This document shows positions 4,105-24,000 of a DNA stretch of 24,000 nucleotides, piece by piece. Source of the stretch: Chamaesiphon sp. OTE_70b_metabat_96 (GTDB lineage Bacteria > Cyanobacteriota > Cyanobacteriia > Cyanobacteriales > Chamaesiphonaceae). The position numbers were made by a program, and so were the translations under genes. Where the stretch lies: the NCBI GenBank assembly GCA_031376885.1, contig JANMEL010000124.1, positions 1-24,000 of the forward strand. Direction: 5' to 3'. Every line of letters begins with the position of its first letter. Within the stretch, counting starts at the first letter, position 1. The notes under the pieces were generated by a model. It saw only the letters and a list, made by a program, of their open reading frames with translations, ran no database searches and was not told the origin of the DNA.

Positions 4105-4343
4105 GATTTGAGGCTGAGTTAACCATAGCACTAGGAATGAGGATTAAATAACTTGCGTAGGTTGGGTTTTCTCCAAAGGAGACGCTACGCGTTGGCAACG
4201 CCTGCGCTTTACGCTCACGCGGGCTGCTACCCAACCTACAGATATATGGCAACCGCCAGGGCGGTTAGGACATCTATAGATGCTTCCGCTCTGGCGGAGG
4301 CTACGCCAACAAACCATTAGTAGGTCAGCTTTCCCAAACTGAC

Positions 4344-4398
4344 CCCTCTCTTGAAAAGGTGCTCTACTTGGGGAGACCCCAAGACCGCACTTTTCGCT
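4344..4398 (-). repeat. Imperfect palindromic repeat; uninterrupted (empty-site) homolog of the repeat at 22083-22185
   Basis: The reverse complement reads agcgaaaagtgcggtcttggggtctcccc|aagtagagcaccttttcaagagagg. The copy at 22083-22185 has the same two halves separated by the 48-nt mini-element. Confidence 0.6.
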
Positions 4399-4510: not shown

Positions 4511-5014
4511 GCTCTTTTCCAATATTTCAATCCCTGTCAGGAAACAAAATAATTCAGCTATTAACTACTGACGACCGCTCTGATAGGAAGTTTAGTTCCC
4601 CGTCAGTAGTATTTAAGTGGAGGACGCGACAAAAACTCCACACTAGTTAGTTATTCTATTGGTTCAAGAATATAATAAAATGACAATTTTAGTACTATTT
4701 TTTAACTGTCCACCAACTTACCGTCGCTCTCCTTCAGTTGATAGTAATAGGTCACAGCGATATAACCCCCATCCAGTAAATACAATGAAATAGCTCTTGC
4801 AACCTTCAGAAAATAAATTATCTCTCAGTTGCTTGCCCCTTGAATTAATCTTAGCTAATCCGATCGCCATATTAAATCATCCAAAAGGATGAGTTTTTCA
4901 ACAAATTAAGTTTGGTATGATTAGTTATCGGATTGTACGCTGAAATAGAGACTTTCTTTGAGACGATCGCGTTTCTAGATCTCGGAGCTGCTGCTGTTGT
5001 TGATTAAATTCCTT

Positions 5015-5656
5015 CTATTCGAGACTCAATAATTGGTCGCGATCGGAATGCATATCCCATTGAGTTTCAGCCAAAAGAAATAGATTTCCTGCCGTAACAA
5101 TCCCTGTCCACAAGAATTGCCAAGTAGGGACATATTGCAACAGAGCAATCGCGCCGAGATGGATGAGGCTACTCACCAAAAATGCATGAGACTTTAGACC
5201 CCAAGCGGTGATGACATAACCGATCGCACTAACTCCCAACCAGATCGAGCACAGATGCGGCAATACCACCCATCCACCGCCAAGAATGCCCCAATCAGTC
5301 AATAACACACCACCAATAGTCAGCCCTATCCAAGCATATACTAACCATCGCAATCGCTCCACTGTCACCCAATACCAAGTCAGATGGTAGGTACTCCAAG
5401 CACCGATTAACGTCAAAATCGACCAGACGATCGCCTGATCTGCCCAACCCACAGTCAGAAACTGCGCTGTTGAAAAAATCACCGCAGTAATTACGCCCCA
5501 CAAAATGAAAACTTGGTCGATGCGGGTATAAAAACTCGAAAATAGTCTATAGTCTTTGATTTGAATGTGGATATGGAGCAACCCTTCAAGATCTTGTAAA
5601 TCCAAAGCGTGTTGTTTGCGTTGGAGAATCGGCGAGACGGTGCTAAAAGCAGTCAT
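5015..5656 (-). CDS. Polytopic integral membrane protein, function unknown
   Basis: 213-aa ORF with about 5-6 Trp/Gly-rich hydrophobic segments, e.g. VFILWGVITAVIFSTAQFL, IVWSILTLIGAW, LVYAWIGLTIGGVLL, WLGVSAIGYVITAWG and LIHLGAIALL. I recognise no family. Confidence 0.7.
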   Translation of the reverse strand: MTAFSTVSPILQRKQHALDLQDLEGLLHIHIQIKDYRLFSSFYTRIDQVFILWGVITAVIFSTAQFLTVGWADQAIVWSILTLIGAWSTYHLTWYWVTVERLRWLVYAWIGLTIGGVLLTDWGILGGGWVVLPHLCSIWLGVSAIGYVITAWGLKSHAFLVSSLIHLGAIALLQYVPTWQFLWTGIVTAGNLFLLAETQWDMHSDRDQLLSLE

Positions 5657-5676
5657 TAAACTTCCTGCGAAAGTCA

Positions 5677-5745
5677 GGGGATAGGGGATAGGGGATAGGG
5701 GATAGGGGATAGGGGATAGGGAATAGGGGATAGGGAATAGGGGGA
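5677..5745. repeat. Heptanucleotide tandem repeat (GGGGATA)n, about 9.5 units with two GGGAATA variants
   Basis: Read directly: ggggata x6, gggaata, ggggata, gggaata, ggggg. It starts about 20 nt upstream of the start codon (5656) of the minus-strand membrane-protein gene. It is STRR-like, the cyanobacterial class of short tandemly repeated heptamers. Confidence 0.92.
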
Positions 5746-5996
5746 ACTTTAGATGAAAATAATACTAAAAAAGATTGTATTGTTACTTTCGCAGGAGGTC
5801 TATTATATCGGGATTACTGAATATTTGGCTAGATCCAACCTCGATTTGGTGGATATTTTAGCTCAGGTATGTCTAACTATAAAGCTAATCTTTAGTTATT
5901 GCTAGTTATGATAATTTGTTTTCTCAAAATAATTAAATCTCGTTGGCATAGCCTCTCGTGAGAGAATCGGATCTCCAAAAGGGTCGATATCGGCAA

Positions 5997-7201: not shown

Positions 7202-7389
7202 ATGAACGCTGCTGCGGCTTTAGCAAGCGAGCTTTTCGGGGGAAGCTTCCCCCGAAAACGTCGCGCCGCCTAAAAGCGTAGATTAAGCCAAGCCAACGGC
7301 GTAGGCGCGGCTTTAGCCGCATAAGTTATACAAAGCTCTTCTATATATTTATTGTTGCCTTAGATAGCTCAATGCTATATAATATATTT

Positions 7390-7788
7390 ATGAGTACTAA
7401 ATATAAATCTAACAACAATATAACTTATTCCTGTAAGTATCATGTCATTTGGTGTCCAAAGTACAGACGGAAGGTGTTGATCCACGATGTTGACATTCGG
7501 CTTAAAGAAATTATCAAAGCTGTATGTGATGAATTCCAAGCTGAACTAATCGAACTTGAGGTTATGCCCGATCACGTTCATCTCTTAGTCGAATGCGATC
7601 CTCAATTCGGAATTGCCAAACTAATTAGGTATATGAAAGGGCGTTCTTCGCGATTGCTTCGACAAGAGTTTCCTTGGCTGAAGAGTCGCCTACCAACGCT
7701 TTGGACAAATTCTTATTTTGTCTCAACTGTTGGCGGTGCCCCTATTGCAGTAATCAAAAAATATATCGAGGATCAGAAAAGTGTCTAA
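7390..7788 (+). CDS. tnpA: IS200/IS605-family Y1 (HUH) transposase TnpA
   Basis: MSTKYKSNNNITYSCKYHVIWCPKYRRKVL..., the HUH motif PDHVHLLV, and the catalytic Tyr region WTNSYFVSTVGG. The ORF track starts 18 nt earlier at 7372, but the MST... start fits the typical family length better. Confidence 0.9.
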   Translation: MSTKYKSNNNITYSCKYHVIWCPKYRRKVLIHDVDIRLKEIIKAVCDEFQAELIELEVMPDHVHLLVECDPQFGIAKLIRYMKGRSSRLLRQEFPWLKSRLPTLWTNSYFVSTVGGAPIAVIKKYIEDQKSV

Positions 7789-9076
7789 CTATGGTTGTCA
7801 ACAAATATTGATTAGTCCAGATTCGATTCTTAGAGCAATTCTAGAATTTATCTGTGGAGAGTCCGCAAAGCTTGGTAATTGCGGAACATATTATTCTCGT
7901 CAATTGTATTTTAAGACTGGATTAATTCCAACTAAATATGACCTTCATCGAGAGTTATCCATTAACCCACATTATAAGGCTCTCCACTCACAGGTTGCTC
8001 AACAATGTTTGACAACTATCGCTGAATCTTTCAAGTCTTTTATTGGGCTACTGAAAGGAATCAAAAATACTGGACGGGTCTCCCGCCCATCTGGTACTGT
8101 AACTCAGAAACCTCGATTACCAAACTACCGAAAAGGTGGATTAGCTTTAATCACATTTCCTAGTCAAGCTGTCAAACTCAAGCCAGAAGGTCTAAGATTT
8201 CCACTAGGCAGCAAAGTCAAAGCATGGTTTAGATTAGATGCTTTCTATCTACCAATGCCCTCAAACTTAGATTTTAAAACGATTCGAGAGTATCGAATTC
8301 TACCTCGCAATGGTTGCTTTTATCTAGAGCTAGTTTATAAAACTGAAGATGTCCAGGCAGACGTAGACTTATCTAAAGCATTGATGATCGACCACGGAAT
8401 GAACAACTGGTTAACCTGTGTCAGTAACACTGGAACTAGTTTTATCATCGATGGTCTGCACCTTAAATCTATCAATCAGGGCTATAACAAGCGTGTTGCT
8501 CATCTAATGGAAGGCATGGCTAATGGTTATTGGTCTAAGCGATTAGAGCGGTTAACCGAAAATCGTAATCGGACGATGCGAGATGCCATCAACAAAGCTG
8601 CTCGAAAGGTAATTAATCATTGCTTGGAGAACAACCTTGGTACTGTTGTATTTGGTTGGAATAAAGGTATGAAAGATGGTGCCAATATGGGAGCTAAGAC
8701 CAATCAAAAGTTCGTCCAAATTCCTACTGGCAGACTCAAAGATCGTATTGCCGGGCTATGCGAACAATATGGCATTAAGTTTGTAGAAACTGAAGAATCC
8801 TATACGTCCAAAGCATCATTTGTCGATCTCGATCTGCTACCTACGTTCGGCAACTGGGCGGGTGACCCGACCAGTGAAAAACCTGAAGGGTGGGCACCAA
8901 GTGGCAAACGAATTAAGCGTGGATTGTATACAACTGCTTTGGGTTGGTTGATTAATGCCGACTGCAACGGTAGTGCAAATATTGGTCGAAAAGTAGCGAC
9001 AATACTAGGACTAGATCTTAGTGGAGTCGGTAGAGGGTCTTTGTCTTCCCCTTTGAGAGTCCCTTTGTGGTCTTAG
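7781..9076 (+). CDS. tnpB: IS200/IS605 accessory protein TnpB (RNA-guided RuvC-like endonuclease family)
   Basis: 431 aa with a GTG start overlapping the tnpA stop by 8 nt. RuvC-like triad candidates are D in LMIDHGMNNW, E in VETEESYTSK and D in INADCNGSANIGRK. No CxxC...CxxC zinc finger lies between the E and the last D. Confidence 0.9.
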   Translation: MSNYGCQQILISPDSILRAILEFICGESAKLGNCGTYYSRQLYFKTGLIPTKYDLHRELSINPHYKALHSQVAQQCLTTIAESFKSFIGLLKGIKNTGRVSRPSGTVTQKPRLPNYRKGGLALITFPSQAVKLKPEGLRFPLGSKVKAWFRLDAFYLPMPSNLDFKTIREYRILPRNGCFYLELVYKTEDVQADVDLSKALMIDHGMNNWLTCVSNTGTSFIIDGLHLKSINQGYNKRVAHLMEGMANGYWSKRLERLTENRNRTMRDAINKAARKVINHCLENNLGTVVFGWNKGMKDGANMGAKTNQKFVQIPTGRLKDRIAGLCEQYGIKFVETEESYTSKASFVDLDLLPTFGNWAGDPTSEKPEGWAPSGKRIKRGLYTTALGWLINADCNGSANIGRKVATILGLDLSGVGRGSLSSPLRVPLWS

Positions 9077-20110: not shown

Positions 20111-20163
20111 GCCAAACAACATGTCGCTCCAGATCGATCGAACCTTGTAGGCAATTCGGGTTG

Positions 20164-20772
20164 TTATAGGGATATCGCGGGTGGTTGTTCAACTAAACCC
20201 AGATCGGCAGGGAGAGCAACATAAATTAAATGATCCACCCATTGCTCATTTTCATAGTAAAAGCCGCGACGAATACACTCTTTTTGCAAGCCAACACTTT
20301 GAGCAAGAGCTATAGAAAGATGATTGTCAATATTAATAGCAGCTTCGATCCGATGATACCCGAAATGATTAAATCCGCTCATCAACACTGCGCTTACTGC
20401 TTCTTTCCCAAAACCCTGTTTCCAATATTGATTATGGATGCTGTAGCCTAAATTAGCCCACTGTTTCTCTTCACGCTGAATCGTTGATAGATCGACATTG
20501 CCGAGGTGTTGGTTTGTTTGCTTGGAGAAGACCCCAAAGATATAAGCATAATCCCTAGATGCTTGTTCCTGATGGCGTTCGCACAAACTTGAAAACCAAG
20601 CTCGATCGCAACCTTCTAAACTAATCTGCCCCTCATCATATTGAGATTGCTGTGGCAATCGCTCTGAAAAACCAGCATACCAAGCTTCATAGTCACTAGG
20701 TTTTTGAGGTCGAAGGATCAGGCGTTCAGTCTCAATTGTTATTGGCCAAGATATTTGATTCATTGCAAGCAT
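20164..20772 (-). CDS. GNAT-family N-acetyltransferase (RimJ/RimL-like, Acetyltransf_3 type)
   Basis: 202 aa. It has the N-terminal IETERLILRP signature, an acetyl-CoA motif A-like YWKQGFGKEAVSAVL, and GYHRIEA. Confidence 0.9.
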   Translation of the reverse strand: MLAMNQISWPITIETERLILRPQKPSDYEAWYAGFSERLPQQSQYDEGQISLEGCDRAWFSSLCERHQEQASRDYAYIFGVFSKQTNQHLGNVDLSTIQREEKQWANLGYSIHNQYWKQGFGKEAVSAVLMSGFNHFGYHRIEAAINIDNHLSIALAQSVGLQKECIRRGFYYENEQWVDHLIYVALPADLGLVEQPPAISL

Positions 20773-20804
20773 TTATCAGCAGAAAAGATGTTAAGGTAAT
20801 AAAA

Positions 20805-21956
20805 CTAGTTGGAAGTTATCAAAGATTCCCAAGTCGCGATCGATTCTCGAAGTGATTTTGGTAGACTCTGCTTTTCTAAATCGATAAACTGTGTCGCTGT
20901 AGCTTGGCTTTGATAGGTCGTTGTGGGGTAGTCAGCAAGTGCCGCACTGGTGAGGTAGGTTAAACCATTTAAGTTCGGGAATTGACGATTTGCCAATGTT
21001 TTTTGAAAAGCATTCAGTCGAGCGATCGACAATGTTTTAATTACCACTGGTGCAAATCTGGCAGTGGGTGAAGATTGATAGCGGGTAATTTTGCCGTCTT
21101 GAGTTAGGACAATCCTCATCATTCTACCTGTCATATCGCCCGATACACTACTGCTGAAAACTTCATTAGCAGCAAGTGGTGAAATCGTACCAAATGTGTC
21201 AAACGAAACGTTAATTTTTCGCTTCGCACCGCTGGCGGTTTGATTTTGAACTATCTTTTCGGCATTCTGAGTGAGATGATAAATATAGCTACGATTATCG
21301 TTCCGATAGGCTTCGCCAACGGGACTAGTAACGATTGCTTGCCAGCCTTGAATCGCAATTTTAGTACAGGCTTGATTAGGGCGATAGATCCCCAGACAAC
21401 CATCATAGGTTTTGGCTCTAACTTCGGTAATGCGGAGTTTTCCAGACTGGGTATTAGTTTCCCTTGCCACCTGTCGAATCAGCTTGCTGGCGACAGGTTG
21501 AGGTAGAAAGCTCCGCTCTGGATTTTCGAGACGGAGAGTTTGACCTGTGCGATCGGTACGATAATACCAGGTTTGAAGCTTGTCGCTCACCTCAATTCGC
21601 CAACCTGTGACGATCGCCATCGAGCAAATTTCCCCACCTTGTGGCAATCCCAAACAACCATCCGGCCAATTTTGCTCTGACACACTCACCACGCCAATCT
21701 GAGCCACTCCAAACTGCTTTTTCACTGCTTGACGAATCGACTGAATTACCGCAGGCGCAGGAGCCTGTTTTGTCGCGCTGGGGCGGTTCGTTGGTTGGCT
21801 CAGGGCGGGGATATTGGCGGTGCTGGCGATCGCACTACCGATCGACAAACTCGCACATATCACACTCAGCCACAGTCTAGACTTTGAACGCTGAAATCGA
21901 GCTGAATACATATCTTTCACCACAGGAGTTTCGAGGTTGGGCGGCGGACGATCCAC
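20805..21956 (-). CDS. Secreted hypothetical protein with an internally duplicated Cys-containing module
   Basis: The signal peptide is RLWLSVICASLSIGSAIASTANI, with a probable start MYSARF at 21911. Two paralogous modules are present: IRQAVKKQFG...NWPDGCLGLPQGGEICSMAIVTGWRIEV and IRQVARETN...KTYDGCLGIYRPNQACTKIAIQGWQAIV. Confidence 0.75.
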   Translation of the reverse strand: MDRPPPNLETPVVKDMYSARFQRSKSRLWLSVICASLSIGSAIASTANIPALSQPTNRPSATKQAPAPAVIQSIRQAVKKQFGVAQIGVVSVSEQNWPDGCLGLPQGGEICSMAIVTGWRIEVSDKLQTWYYRTDRTGQTLRLENPERSFLPQPVASKLIRQVARETNTQSGKLRITEVRAKTYDGCLGIYRPNQACTKIAIQGWQAIVTSPVGEAYRNDNRSYIYHLTQNAEKIVQNQTASGAKRKINVSFDTFGTISPLAANEVFSSSVSGDMTGRMMRIVLTQDGKITRYQSSPTARFAPVVIKTLSIARLNAFQKTLANRQFPNLNGLTYLTSAALADYPTTTYQSQATATQFIDLEKQSLPKSLRESIATWESLITSN

Positions 21957-22082
21957 CTATAGTTACTCTGACACTCGTTGGCGTAGCCTCTCCTTTGGAG
22001 AATCGATGATAAGAGTTTCCGGTTGTGGAGTAGTGCTAAAATTTAAACTGGCATCTAAAAAATCCTCAGATCGCAAACAAAA

Positions 22083-22185
22083 GAGCGAAAAGTGCGGTCT
22101 TGGGGTTTCCCCGTCTTGTCGTTTTTTTATTCGGGGGGAACCCCCGAATAAAAACGCCGCAAGTGGAGCACCTTTTCAAGAGAGG
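22083..22185 (+). repeat. Palindromic dispersed repeat interrupted by the 48-nt hairpin mini-element (copy B at 22113-22160)
   Basis: gagcgaaaagtgcggtcttggggtttcccc [gtcttgtcgtttttttattcggggggaacccccgaataaaaacgccgc] aagtggagcaccttttcaagagagg. The flanks equal the reverse complement of 4344-4398, and the insert equals the reverse complement of 2691-2738. Confidence 0.65.
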
Positions 22186-22193
22186 ACTATTGC

Positions 22194-23468
22194 ATGAAAA
22201 TTACAGAAATATCGCTCAAACACTACCGTGGAGCAGAATCATTACAGTTGCAACTGGGGCAGAACCTAAATGTTTTTGCTGGAGTTAATGGATCTGGCAA
22301 ATCTACGGTGCTGGATAGTATTGTAGTCATGCTTTCTTGGGCGGTAAGTCGGATTAAATCTGTGGGAGCTTCTGGACGACCCATATCCGAAGCAGATATC
22401 ATGAATGGCCACTCTTCAGCATTAATTGAAATTGTTTGTACTGAGGGCGATCGGATAATCGAGTGGAAACTATCAAAAAGCAGAAAAGGTCACGGCTCAC
22501 CAGCCGATCGTAGTAACCTAAATAATTTAAGTGAATTCACAAAACAGATTCAATCAGAGATTTCAGCAAAACATGAAAGCATTAACTTACCTCTTTTCGT
22601 TCACTATTCAGTAAATAGAGCTGTACTAGATATCCCATTAAAGATCCGAAAAAAAAATTCATTCAATCTACTTAGTATTTATGATGAATCTCTTACTACC
22701 GGATCTAGTTTTCGGACTTTTTTTGAATGGTTTCGAGAACGAGAAGATCTAGAAAATGAAAACATTAAATATCTCGCCCATCCACTAGCGACATTATCTA
22801 CATCAACAGATTCACAGCTAGAAATTGTCCGAAATGCTTTGCAGAAATTTTTACCAGAATTTACTAATTTTAGTATTCGTCGTAGTCCATTGAGAATGGA
22901 GGTTAAAAAGGGTGGTGAAACTTTAATAGTGAATCAACTTTCTGATGGCGAAAAGTGTTTAATTGCTTTAGTTGGGGATCTAGCAAGAAGAATGGCTATT
23001 GCTAACACTATGAGACAAGATCCCTTAGAAGGTGATGGAATTGTTCTCATTGACGAGGTTGATTTACATTTACATCCCAGATGGCAAAGAACTGTTATTT
23101 CAAAACTGACTGAGGTCTTTCCCAATTGCCAATTTATCATCTCGACTCATTCGCCTCATGTCATTAATCATGTACACCCAGAAAATCTTTTTTTACTGGA
23201 TCGAACCGCTGATGGTATTACAGCAACACATCCCTCAAAATCTTATGGAAATAATGTCGATCGCATCCTAGAAGATTTAATGGGTCTACAAACTACACGG
23301 ACAGATGATGTTTTCCAAGAACTTAGAGATATATACGAGCTAATTAGTCAAAATTTATTGCCCGATGCTACTAATAAAATCGTGACATTAAAACAAAAAA
23401 TTGGGATAGACCCTGAATTGGTAAAAGCTGAGGTCTTAATAAAAAGAAAAAAATTAATTGGTAAATGA
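22194..23468 (+). CDS. ptuA: ABC/AAA-type ATPase of the AAA_15/AAA_21 class (Septu PtuA-like defence ATPase)
   Basis: 424 aa. Features seen: Walker A GVNGSGKST (K36), an ABC-signature-like LSDGEK, Walker B IVLIDEVDLHLHP and the H-loop STHSPH. AGAGG lies upstream of the ATG. The gene is visibly more AT-rich than its neighbours and is translationally coupled to an HNH gene. Confidence 0.8.
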   Translation: MKITEISLKHYRGAESLQLQLGQNLNVFAGVNGSGKSTVLDSIVVMLSWAVSRIKSVGASGRPISEADIMNGHSSALIEIVCTEGDRIIEWKLSKSRKGHGSPADRSNLNNLSEFTKQIQSEISAKHESINLPLFVHYSVNRAVLDIPLKIRKKNSFNLLSIYDESLTTGSSFRTFFEWFREREDLENENIKYLAHPLATLSTSTDSQLEIVRNALQKFLPEFTNFSIRRSPLRMEVKKGGETLIVNQLSDGEKCLIALVGDLARRMAIANTMRQDPLEGDGIVLIDEVDLHLHPRWQRTVISKLTEVFPNCQFIISTHSPHVINHVHPENLFLLDRTADGITATHPSKSYGNNVDRILEDLMGLQTTRTDDVFQELRDIYELISQNLLPDATNKIVTLKQKIGIDPELVKAEVLIKRKKLIGK

Positions 23469-24000
23469 AGCATATTATCAAGCAATCTGAGCCAATAAAA
23501 TTTAGTGAATGGAAAGCACTTGCTAATGATGAGTGGCAACCTACCTATCCTAATTTAATGGGTGATGAAAAAAAGGCTGTTCATATATCACTGATGGAAG
23601 AACAGGGATACATTTGTTGTTACTGCGAGAACCGATTGATTGAAGTGGATTCTCATATCGAACATTTTAGACCACAGCACGATCCAATTGTTGATGCTTT
23701 AGATTATAGTAATATTATCTGCTCTTGCCAAAATCGAATTCAAAAAGGCGATCCACGTCATTGTGGTAATTTAAAAAATAAATGGTTCGATGATAAACTA
23801 TTAATTTCACCTCTTGAGGAGGGTTGTGAAAATAGATTTCGTTTCAATGGTGATGGTAGGATTTTGCCAACAGATCCTCATGACAAAGCTGCAATTACAA
23901 CTATTGAAAAATTGGGACTCGATCTGCCATTGATGAATAAGTTGCGAAATCAAGCTATTGAAGTATTTTTAGATGAGGAATTGACAGAAGAGGAGGTTGA
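23465..24000 (+). CDS. ptuB: HNH endonuclease, TIGR02646-like (Septu PtuB-like); partial, runs off the window end
   Basis: My own translation from the ATG at 23465 (ATGA overlap with the ptuA stop) is MKHIIKQSEPIKFSEWKALANDEWQPTYPNLMGDEKKAVHISLMEEQGYICCYCENRLIEVDSHIEHFRPQHDP...CSCQNRIQKGDPRHCGNLKNKWF... It has no stop for 178 codons. C.YCE...(H)IEHF.P plus CGN.K form the HNH-like pattern. It is not in the supplied ORF track because no stop codon falls inside the window. Confidence 0.75.
   Translation, partial: MKHIIKQSEPIKFSEWKALANDEWQPTYPNLMGDEKKAVHISLMEEQGYICCYCENRLIEVDSHIEHFRPQHDPIVDALDYSNIICSCQNRIQKGDPRHCGNLKNKWFDDKLLISPLEEGCENRFRFNGDGRILPTDPHDKAAITTIEKLGLDLPLMNKLRNQAIEVFLDEELTEEEV

Follow-up and report, generated by a model that had tools for sequence, protein, structure and literature searches.

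Evidence for a stand-alone Septu (PtuAB) operon on a low-GC accessory cassette of a Chamaesiphon-like cyanobacterium

Septu, a two-gene system of an ABC-type ATPase (PtuA) and an HNH nuclease (PtuB), has to our knowledge so far been studied only in Escherichia coli and Bacillus. In E. coli, Septu acts in an abortive-infection-like manner, and the Walker A/B residues as well as the HNH residues are needed for defence (PMC13096335). The stand-alone PtuAB of E. coli is described as a 6:2 PtuA:PtuB assembly, the DNA nicking of which drops with rising ATP (Li et al., 2024, as cited in PMC12819146 and PMC12640716). Paired C-terminal extensions of PtuA clamp PtuB by its C-terminal domain (PMC12819146). 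For the pair analyzed below, the closest relatives with solved structures are the PtuA/PtuB effectors of the type I-A retrons Ec78 and Ec83. The N-terminal extension of retron PtuA binds the reverse transcriptase (RT) and the noncoding RNA (ncRNA), and a helical flap or hairpin encircles the multicopy single-stranded DNA, msDNA (PMC12819146; PMC12640716). A mutation of H57 to Ala in Ec78 PtuB abolishes defence (PMC12640716). Here, a ptuA-ptuB pair is analyzed that lies at the right-hand edge of a 24,000-nt stretch of DNA, herein referred to as the window, from Chamaesiphon sp. OTE_70b_metabat_96 (GCA_031376885.1, contig JANMEL010000124.1, positions 1 to 24,000 of the forward strand).

The pair consists of ptuA (22194..23468, plus strand, 424 aa) and ptuB (23465..24000, plus strand, 178 of its 210 codons inside the window). 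This locus is very probably a stand-alone (type I) Septu system, that is, a two-gene, translationally coupled operon on a low-GC accessory cassette of about 2.07 kb in a Chamaesiphon-like cyanobacterium. The present analysis demonstrates that both proteins belong to their families and keep their catalytic motifs, that PtuB is complete, that both genes are under purifying selection, that the cassette is accessory and that no retron is present in the window or the 1.8 kb after it. A preliminary description, made from the letters alone, had read the pair as a Septu (PtuA/PtuB)-type defence module. In agreement with it, both proteins match the Septu profiles decisively, and the 50 best PDB matches of the PtuA model are all PtuA structures.

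PtuA matches the PADLOC profile PtuA1 (PDLC00271) with an E-value of 3.6e-154 and 512 bits, residues 1-422 corresponding to model positions 1-417 of 421. In Pfam, AAA_15 (85 bits) and AAA_21 (82 bits) were matched above their cut-offs, together with AAA_23 and SMC_N. PtuB matches the PADLOC profile PtuB1 (PDLC00320) with an E-value of 3.2e-75 for the 178-codon part in the window and 1.7e-86 for the full 210-aa protein (250-287 bits from the one to the other), residues 4-207 corresponding to model positions 1-200 of 202. The TIGR02646 model was matched by PtuB with 96.7 bits against a cut-off of 52.15. Both Septu profiles are covered to their ends, where the C-terminal regions of the described PtuA-PtuB interface would lie.

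The translation of ptuA contains every motif that had been read in the first gene by eye. These are the Walker A motif GVNGSGKST (22281-22307, with K36), the signature LSDGEK (22938-22955, residues 249-254), the Walker B motif IVLIDEVDLHLHP (23040-23063, with D287 and E288), which reads IVLIDEVD and is followed by LHLHP, and the H-loop STHSP (23142-23156, with H319), all on the plus strand. In a sequence search of the PDB, PtuA chains were the only strong matches. The PtuA of E. coli Septu (8EE4) aligns colinearly (E-value 1e-31, residues 1-421 versus 1-459). The PtuA proteins of retrons Ec83 and Ec78 (E-values from 3e-55 to 1e-41) align in two stretches because they carry extra segments. An AlphaFold model of PtuA built with 64 homologues has a mean predicted local distance difference test (pLDDT) score of 86.1 and a predicted template modeling (pTM) score of 0.82. 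The top 50 matches of this model in a Foldseek search of the PDB are all PtuA, with template modeling scores (TM-scores) of 0.7-0.78. The C-terminus of the model (residues 371-422) forms three helices, which agree with the PtuB-clamping extension described for PtuA (PMC12819146).

The start of ptuB overlaps the stop of ptuA through ATGA (23465..23468, plus strand; ATG at 23465-23467, TGA at 23466-23468). As had been noted, the ptuB frame stays open to the window end, for 178 codons; it was absent from the list of open reading frames (ORFs) because it runs off the window edge. Extension past position 24000 was provided by the Logan contig L001 (3774 nt), which is 100% identical to the window over an overlap of 1849 nt. 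In this contig the second ORF is intact and encodes a PtuB of 210 aa that would end at 24097. The HNH-type signature proposed for this protein was found with one correction: CCYCE, HIEHFRPQ and CGNLKNK (23762-23782, plus strand) are all present, and the spacer between the first two has 8 residues, not 10. The Cys/His motif is thus CCYCE-x8-HIEHF (23615-23677, plus strand), reading on as HIEHFRPQ. The HNH residues H64/H67 and N83 (23711-23713) are intact, and H67 (23663-23665), the catalytic one, aligns with H57 of Ec78 PtuB. A PDB search with PtuB matched PtuB chains at E-values between 5e-9 and 4e-5, and the H-N-H residues line up in these alignments.

The ATGA overlap is consistent with translational coupling of ptuA and ptuB, and the order of the two genes is widely kept. 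A scan of GTDB genome contigs with PtuA, in which no relative exceeded 65% identity, was used for ptuB adjacency and taxonomic scatter. Among 83 related loci, ptuB abuts ptuA in 79; of the four exceptions, three lie at the end of a contig. No gap separates the two genes in 73 of the 79 loci having ptuB. A separate case is the related locus L002 (GCA_043755575.1, 11723-12223). There, ptuA lies directly after mfd, and ptuB is called as a 166-aa protein after a gap of 123 nt. The call begins at MKEQGYICCYCE, so that either the start was called wrongly or this PtuB is truncated at its N-terminus.

The close match to Ec78 and Ec83 raises the question of whether the pair serves as effector module in a type I-A retron ("type II Septu"), with RT and msr/msd lying outside the examined sequence and msDNA acting as the antitoxin that sequesters PtuAB. 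The PDB matches to Ec83/Ec78 PtuA are indeed closer than those to E. coli Septu PtuA, both by sequence (3e-55 versus 1e-31) and by Foldseek (3e-35 versus 1e-28). Additionally, the PADLOC models ATPase_I-A and HNH_I-A as well as the NCBIfam models for Ec78 PtuA and PtuB are matched. The NCBIfam equivalogs, however, miss their cut-offs, with 329.7 versus 500 bits for NF041760 (PtuA) and 105-106 versus 150 bits for NF041761 (PtuB), and the PtuA1 and PtuB1 profiles score far higher. The gene context does not fit a retron either. In retron I-A operons, the ncRNA and the RT gene lie directly 5' of ptuA, but here a 237-nt stretch of dispersed repeats takes this position, and beyond it lies a divergent gene for a 383-aa protein. 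The dispersed repeats that make up the structured DNA 5' of ptuA have copies elsewhere.

A search of the ORFs of the window, and of those on the following 1.8 kb covered by L001, found no RT domain, and no retron RNA was found in the window by Rfam at the gathering threshold, the sole match being the CyVA-1 RNA at 4703-4779. The other ORFs of the window encode dehydrogenases, a polyketide-cyclase-like protein, a spore-photoproduct lyase, TnpA and TnpB of the IS200/IS605 type, a molybdopterin oxidoreductase, desaturase-like oxidoreductases, a HAD hydrolase, a GNAT protein and proteins without assignment. Thus, the earlier statement that no RT or msr/msd-like element lies upstream holds for 22 kb, and the RT that was thought possible beyond position 24000 does not appear in the next 1.8 kb of L001. 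The protein itself points the same way. Residue 2 of the window PtuA aligns with residue 62 of Ec83 PtuA, so the RT- and ncRNA-binding N-terminal extension is missing, and residues ~257-297 of Ec83 PtuA, which form the flap, have no counterpart. The close relatives L002 and L004 also lack an adjacent RT. On this evidence it is highly improbable that the pair belongs to a retron.

The stand-alone Septu pair is located on an accessory segment. Its G+C content (GC) is 0.365 for ptuA and 0.354 for ptuB, compared with 0.453 for the rest of the window, which agrees with the lower GC than in the flanks noticed by eye. The housekeeping proteins of the window fall in clusters of at least 90% identity with Chamaesiphon proteins. 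A related contig, L090 (GCA_031422115.1), is ~93% identical to the window over 20123-21977, including the GNAT gene and the 383-aa gene, and again over 24097-24490, starting exactly at the PtuB stop. About 22028-24096 is missing from this contig, with 18-22 nt of filler in its place. A second, short contig (L091) has the same empty arrangement. Relatives of PtuA at 55-65% identity were found in cyanobacteria, Desulfobacterota, Gammaproteobacteria, Chlorobia and archaea of the Methanosarcinales. Low GC, the empty sites and the scattered relatives together bear out the earlier view of an accessory locus, and the comparison of related strains showed that ptuAB is not universally syntenic. L004 holds a sister cassette with 88-89% identity in ptuAB; its surroundings differ, with a PIN toxin-antitoxin pair and a DUF3854 gene in front of it.

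These data also bear on the possibility that the pair is a housekeeping ATPase for DNA repair or chromosome maintenance (RecF/Rad50/SMC-like) with a partner nuclease. The SMC_N and AAA_23 matches in Pfam would fit such a role, as would weak NCBIfam matches to RecF, Rad50 and RecN, which are limited to the first ~50-120 residues. These scores are far below their cut-offs (49 versus 172 for RecF, 31 versus 1000 for Rad50). In L090 and L091 the same site lacks the pair, which also has an atypically low GC and a patchy distribution over bacterial phyla and archaea. A housekeeping function is therefore vanishingly unlikely.

The left boundary of the cassette is a copy of a low-copy dispersed repeat (21960..22027) ending in TCGATGATAAGAGTTTCCGGTTGTG (22003-22027); further copies of its sub-element 21981-22002 lie at 4169-4190 and 2821-2843. 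The cassette of the window, like that of L004, begins right after the dispersed repeat ending TCGATGATRAGAGTTTCCGGYTGTG. A second copy of the repeat follows ptuB in L004, and the empty sites of L090 and L091 keep one copy. The repeat end GAGTTTCCGGYTGTG was located at 22003-22027 in the window, at 5366-5380 and 7745-7759 in L004, at 1861-1875 and 3768-3782 in L090, and at 508-522 in L091. The repeat at the cassette edge may be a recombination or integration site, and the three loci are compatible with gain or loss of the cassette by recombination at dispersed repeats. Site-specific insertion next to the repeat ending GAGTTTCCGGYTGTG and homologous recombination between its copies fit these three loci equally, and no mechanism is claimed. 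On the other side of this boundary, at 20805-21956 (minus strand), lies the gene for the 383-aa protein, which starts with a hydrophobic, signal-like segment at its N-terminus and gave no match in Pfam or NCBIfam; a 391-aa homologue adjoins the GNAT gene in L090.

The cassette leader, or 5' untranslated region of ptuA (22028..22193, plus strand), is absent from the empty sites, including L090. Its identity to L004 5381-5438 plus 5431-5447 is 88%. A Shine-Dalgarno-like GAGAGGA lies 7-13 nt before the ptuA ATG. A promoter and terminator scan 5' of ptuA gave nothing above chance. The hairpin at 22115-22163 was considered as a canonical terminator and rejected, as the T-run precedes the stem and the A-run follows it on both strands.

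Within this leader, two palindromic mini-elements form a nested insertion (22085..22177) that ends 16 nt upstream of the ptuA start. The outer element of 54 nt (22084-22112 plus 22157-22185) is an inverted copy of a palindromic element at 4345-4398 (93-97% identity). The inner palindromic element of 52 nt (22109-22160), which also occurs at 2691-2742 (87%), splits the loop of the outer one. The hairpin arms in the region of the inner element are 22115-22137 and 22141-22163. The leader of L004 is the same minus exactly 22085-22177, a stretch with AGAG flanking it at either end. This shows a real nesting that arose as a secondary insertion, and the nested mini-repeats described earlier 5' of ptuA are confirmed by their copies elsewhere and by their absence from L004.

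A second difference from the nearest relatives lies inside ptuA. The most similar proteins, P0002 (93% identical), P0003 (91%) and P0006 (90%), are 513-521 aa long. Alignments with these proteins and with L004 place the junction of an in-frame 90-codon deletion at 22794..22799 (plus strand), with the cut between 22796 and 22797 (T201/L202). At this site the L004 DNA has 276 extra nt, and no convincing microhomology was found at the junction in the comparison with L004. The model of P0002 shows the extra residues (~197-285) as four helices, predicted with confidence and lying between the ATPase lobes, and all the other secondary-structure elements are the same as in the window PtuA. Thus, the deletion removed one discrete module. 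After the loss, the window PtuA has the length of the common 421-430-aa form of PtuA, so it is most likely still functional, as far as its sequence tells.

PtuA proteins with the short linker are the majority of the family. Inside the long-linker clade, short-linker forms occur at four or five separate positions with differing alignment boundaries, in a neighbor-joining tree of core columns that carries no bootstrap support and has a uniformly short outgroup. The insertion site is where retron PtuA has its msDNA-clamping flap or hairpin. By phmmer, the distal part of the module aligns weakly and partially with the retron I-A PtuA proteins Ec83 and 9N69. A Foldseek search with the long-form model returned PtuA chains and left the homology of the four-helix insertion to the retron flap unsettled. 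No RT was found near the long-form relatives L002 and L004. Speculatively, and with low probability, the module might be a regulatory or sensor element, pairs of forms with and without it might reflect an evolutionary switch in the triggering or restraint of stand-alone Septu, and long-linker Septu without RT might be an intermediate on the way to retron I-A. If so, the module could for instance clamp a ligand or nucleic acid, or a phage inhibitor could target it, and retron I-A could have recruited PtuAB from a long-linker, RT-less Septu. The short PtuA of the window and the long forms that are 90-93% identical to it provide a natural test of the role of the helical insertion.

The same changes could instead mean that the locus is a decaying remnant and no longer a working defence. 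The 90-codon deletion relative to such similar proteins, the nested repeat 16 nt before the ATG, which is absent from L004, and the loss of the cassette in sister genomes can be read in this way. The neighborhood does erode: L090 has no ptuAB, only a truncated zeta-toxin gene, and no gene for a 92-aa protein that follows the latter downstream of ptuB. Decay is nevertheless unlikely. Both frames are intact with every catalytic motif present; the deletion keeps the frame exactly and takes out a single discrete module, leaving a product that matches the 421-position profile end to end and folds confidently. Short linkers, being the majority form, arose repeatedly in the long-linker clade with different boundaries, and the Shine-Dalgarno-like sequence was kept at the repeat boundary. 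In comparison with L004, the ratio of nonsynonymous to synonymous substitution rates (dN/dS) is 0.10 for ptuA (0.13 before the deletion junction and 0.07 after it) and 0.16 for ptuB.

Downstream of ptuB, L001 contains an 84-aa gene, a zeta-toxin gene, the 92-aa gene on the other strand and a gene of the zinc-dependent alcohol-dehydrogenase family, in this order. The 84-aa gene and the gene for a zeta-toxin-family kinase of 193 aa (PF06414, 44 bits) lie directly 3' of ptuB at 1990-2830 of L001, equivalent to window positions 24141-24981, and are likely a toxin-antitoxin pair. In L090 a loss of ~300 nt has reduced the zeta-toxin gene to a 90-aa remnant, and the 92-aa gene after it is missing. 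A pair with 69% identity lies 3' of ptuAB in L004.

The order ptuA, ptuB, small gene and zeta-toxin gene thus recurs in L004 in spite of the different upstream context, as would be expected if PtuAB, the 84-aa protein and the zeta-toxin kinase formed one four-gene defence system. This arrangement is rare, though: a zeta-toxin gene adjoins ptuAB in only one of the 83 related loci, and two more have only a distant match elsewhere. The 84-aa gene is kept without ptuAB in L090 and L091. Identity to L004 is 69% for the toxin-antitoxin genes compared with 88% for ptuAB, and the GC of the toxin-antitoxin genes, 0.42-0.46, is like that of the host and unlike that of the cassette. The PADLOC models gave no defence-system match for the 84-aa or the zeta-toxin gene. 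A four-gene system is therefore very unlikely.

The anti-phage activity of PtuAB, its trigger and the target of its nuclease are inferred from E. coli Septu and from retron-associated PtuAB. By this analogy, the cyanobacterial pair is most likely an ATPase-gated HNH nuclease released upon infection. PtuA would oligomerize and hold PtuB through its three-helix C-terminal extension, and in the uninfected cell nucleotide-bound PtuA would keep the nuclease in check. A phage cue, or the fall of ATP on infection, might free the nuclease, which could then cut host tRNA (tRNA-Tyr in the E. coli systems) or nick DNA. Translation or replication would halt, and phage production would be aborted.

Several points weigh against a working Septu of this kind. 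We know of no experiment on the window pair or on any cyanobacterial Septu. The structural-alignment identity to the experimentally studied proteins, from which activity, trigger and substrate are extrapolated, is only 24-32%. In the signature motif of the window PtuA, LSDGE, the variable position is occupied by E. The same position has Q in retron PtuA, an active ATPase, and L in the E. coli Septu protein, reported without ATPase activity (PMC12819146); the ATPase behavior of the window protein is therefore not predictable. A Pfam search of PtuB, with the window part and with the full length, found no HNH domain or other family, and the HNH assignment comes from the TIGR02646, PADLOC and PDB matches. 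The highly structured nested repeat of 92 nt, 16 nt 5' of the start, could impair expression. The deletion in ptuA is recent, given nearest relatives that are 93% identical, and purifying selection over the whole divergence is no proof that the deleted form is active. Finally, the cassette is dispensable, because a sister genome lost it.

Some further features of the window are located far from the operon. An IS200/IS605-type element was found at 7372-9076 (plus strand). It encodes a Y1 transposase TnpA of 138 aa (PF01797, E-value 7e-46), which overlaps a TnpB-like protein of 431 aa with OrfB_IS605 and Cas12f1-like TNB domains. The CyVA-1 match at 4703-4779 (minus strand) is a full-length match to this cyanobacterial small RNA (RF02965, 68.8 bits versus a gathering threshold of 41.4). 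Inverted repeats rich in G/C runs, with arms of 54-65 nt that are 83-88% complementary, were found at 1384-1498 and 2475-2585. They bracket the polyketide-cyclase-like gene (1568-2296) and look like an inverted pair of mini-elements. A tandem heptamer, AGGGGAT, is present in about ten copies at 5676-5750, just upstream of an ORF for a 213-aa protein (5015-5656, minus strand), for which no family match was found.

The pair is an example of Septu that standard annotation of defence systems would call, and it leaves the current understanding of the system unchanged. The one feature beyond routine annotation is that short-linker forms recur where the helical module is located. The locus adds a well-delimited cyanobacterial Septu, with a clean comparison of occupied and empty sites and a defined cassette of 2.07 kb.

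Among the known systems, the stand-alone Septu of E. coli (8EE4/8EE7/8EEA; EcB88 in PMC13096335) is like the window pair in organization. Both are ptuA-ptuB operons without RT, with an ABC ATPase that has neither the N-terminal extension nor the flap insertion and with a TIGR02646-type HNH nuclease. The E. coli PtuA structures (8eea/8ee4) superpose on the window PtuA with TM-scores of 0.71-0.76, but at only ~24-26% structural-alignment identity; they have L in the signature (PMC12819146) where the window PtuA has E, and the host of the window pair is a cyanobacterium. The retron I-A proteins of Ec78 (Eco7) and Ec83 (Eco4), with structures such as 9KJX, 9NNB, 9E8Z and 9N69, are the closest solved relatives (E-value 3e-55, TM-scores 0.72-0.78). 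They share with the window pair the catalytic motifs, including H67 (H57 in Ec78), and probably PtuA's C-terminal extension and the C-terminal region of PtuB. Unlike them, the window pair has no RT, ncRNA, msDNA, N-terminal extension or flap and misses the NCBIfam equivalog cut-offs.

The long-linker relatives P0002-P0011 (513-534 aa; loci L004 and L002) come from cyanobacteria or metagenomes. Their cores are 78-93% identical to the window PtuA, they are stand-alone without RT, and their PtuB is at least 86% identical to that of the window; L004 also shares the cassette leader. They differ by an insertion of ~90-125 residues in four helices that the window PtuA lacks, and L004 differs by having no nested repeat in the leader. 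Gabija GajA, PARIS AriA and the OLD nucleases share only the ABC-ATPase head with the window PtuA. Their matches are weak (E-values from 1e-6 to 1e-4), with scores orders of magnitude below those of PtuA, and the window PtuA, unlike these proteins, has no fused Toprim nuclease and has another partner, the HNH nuclease PtuB.

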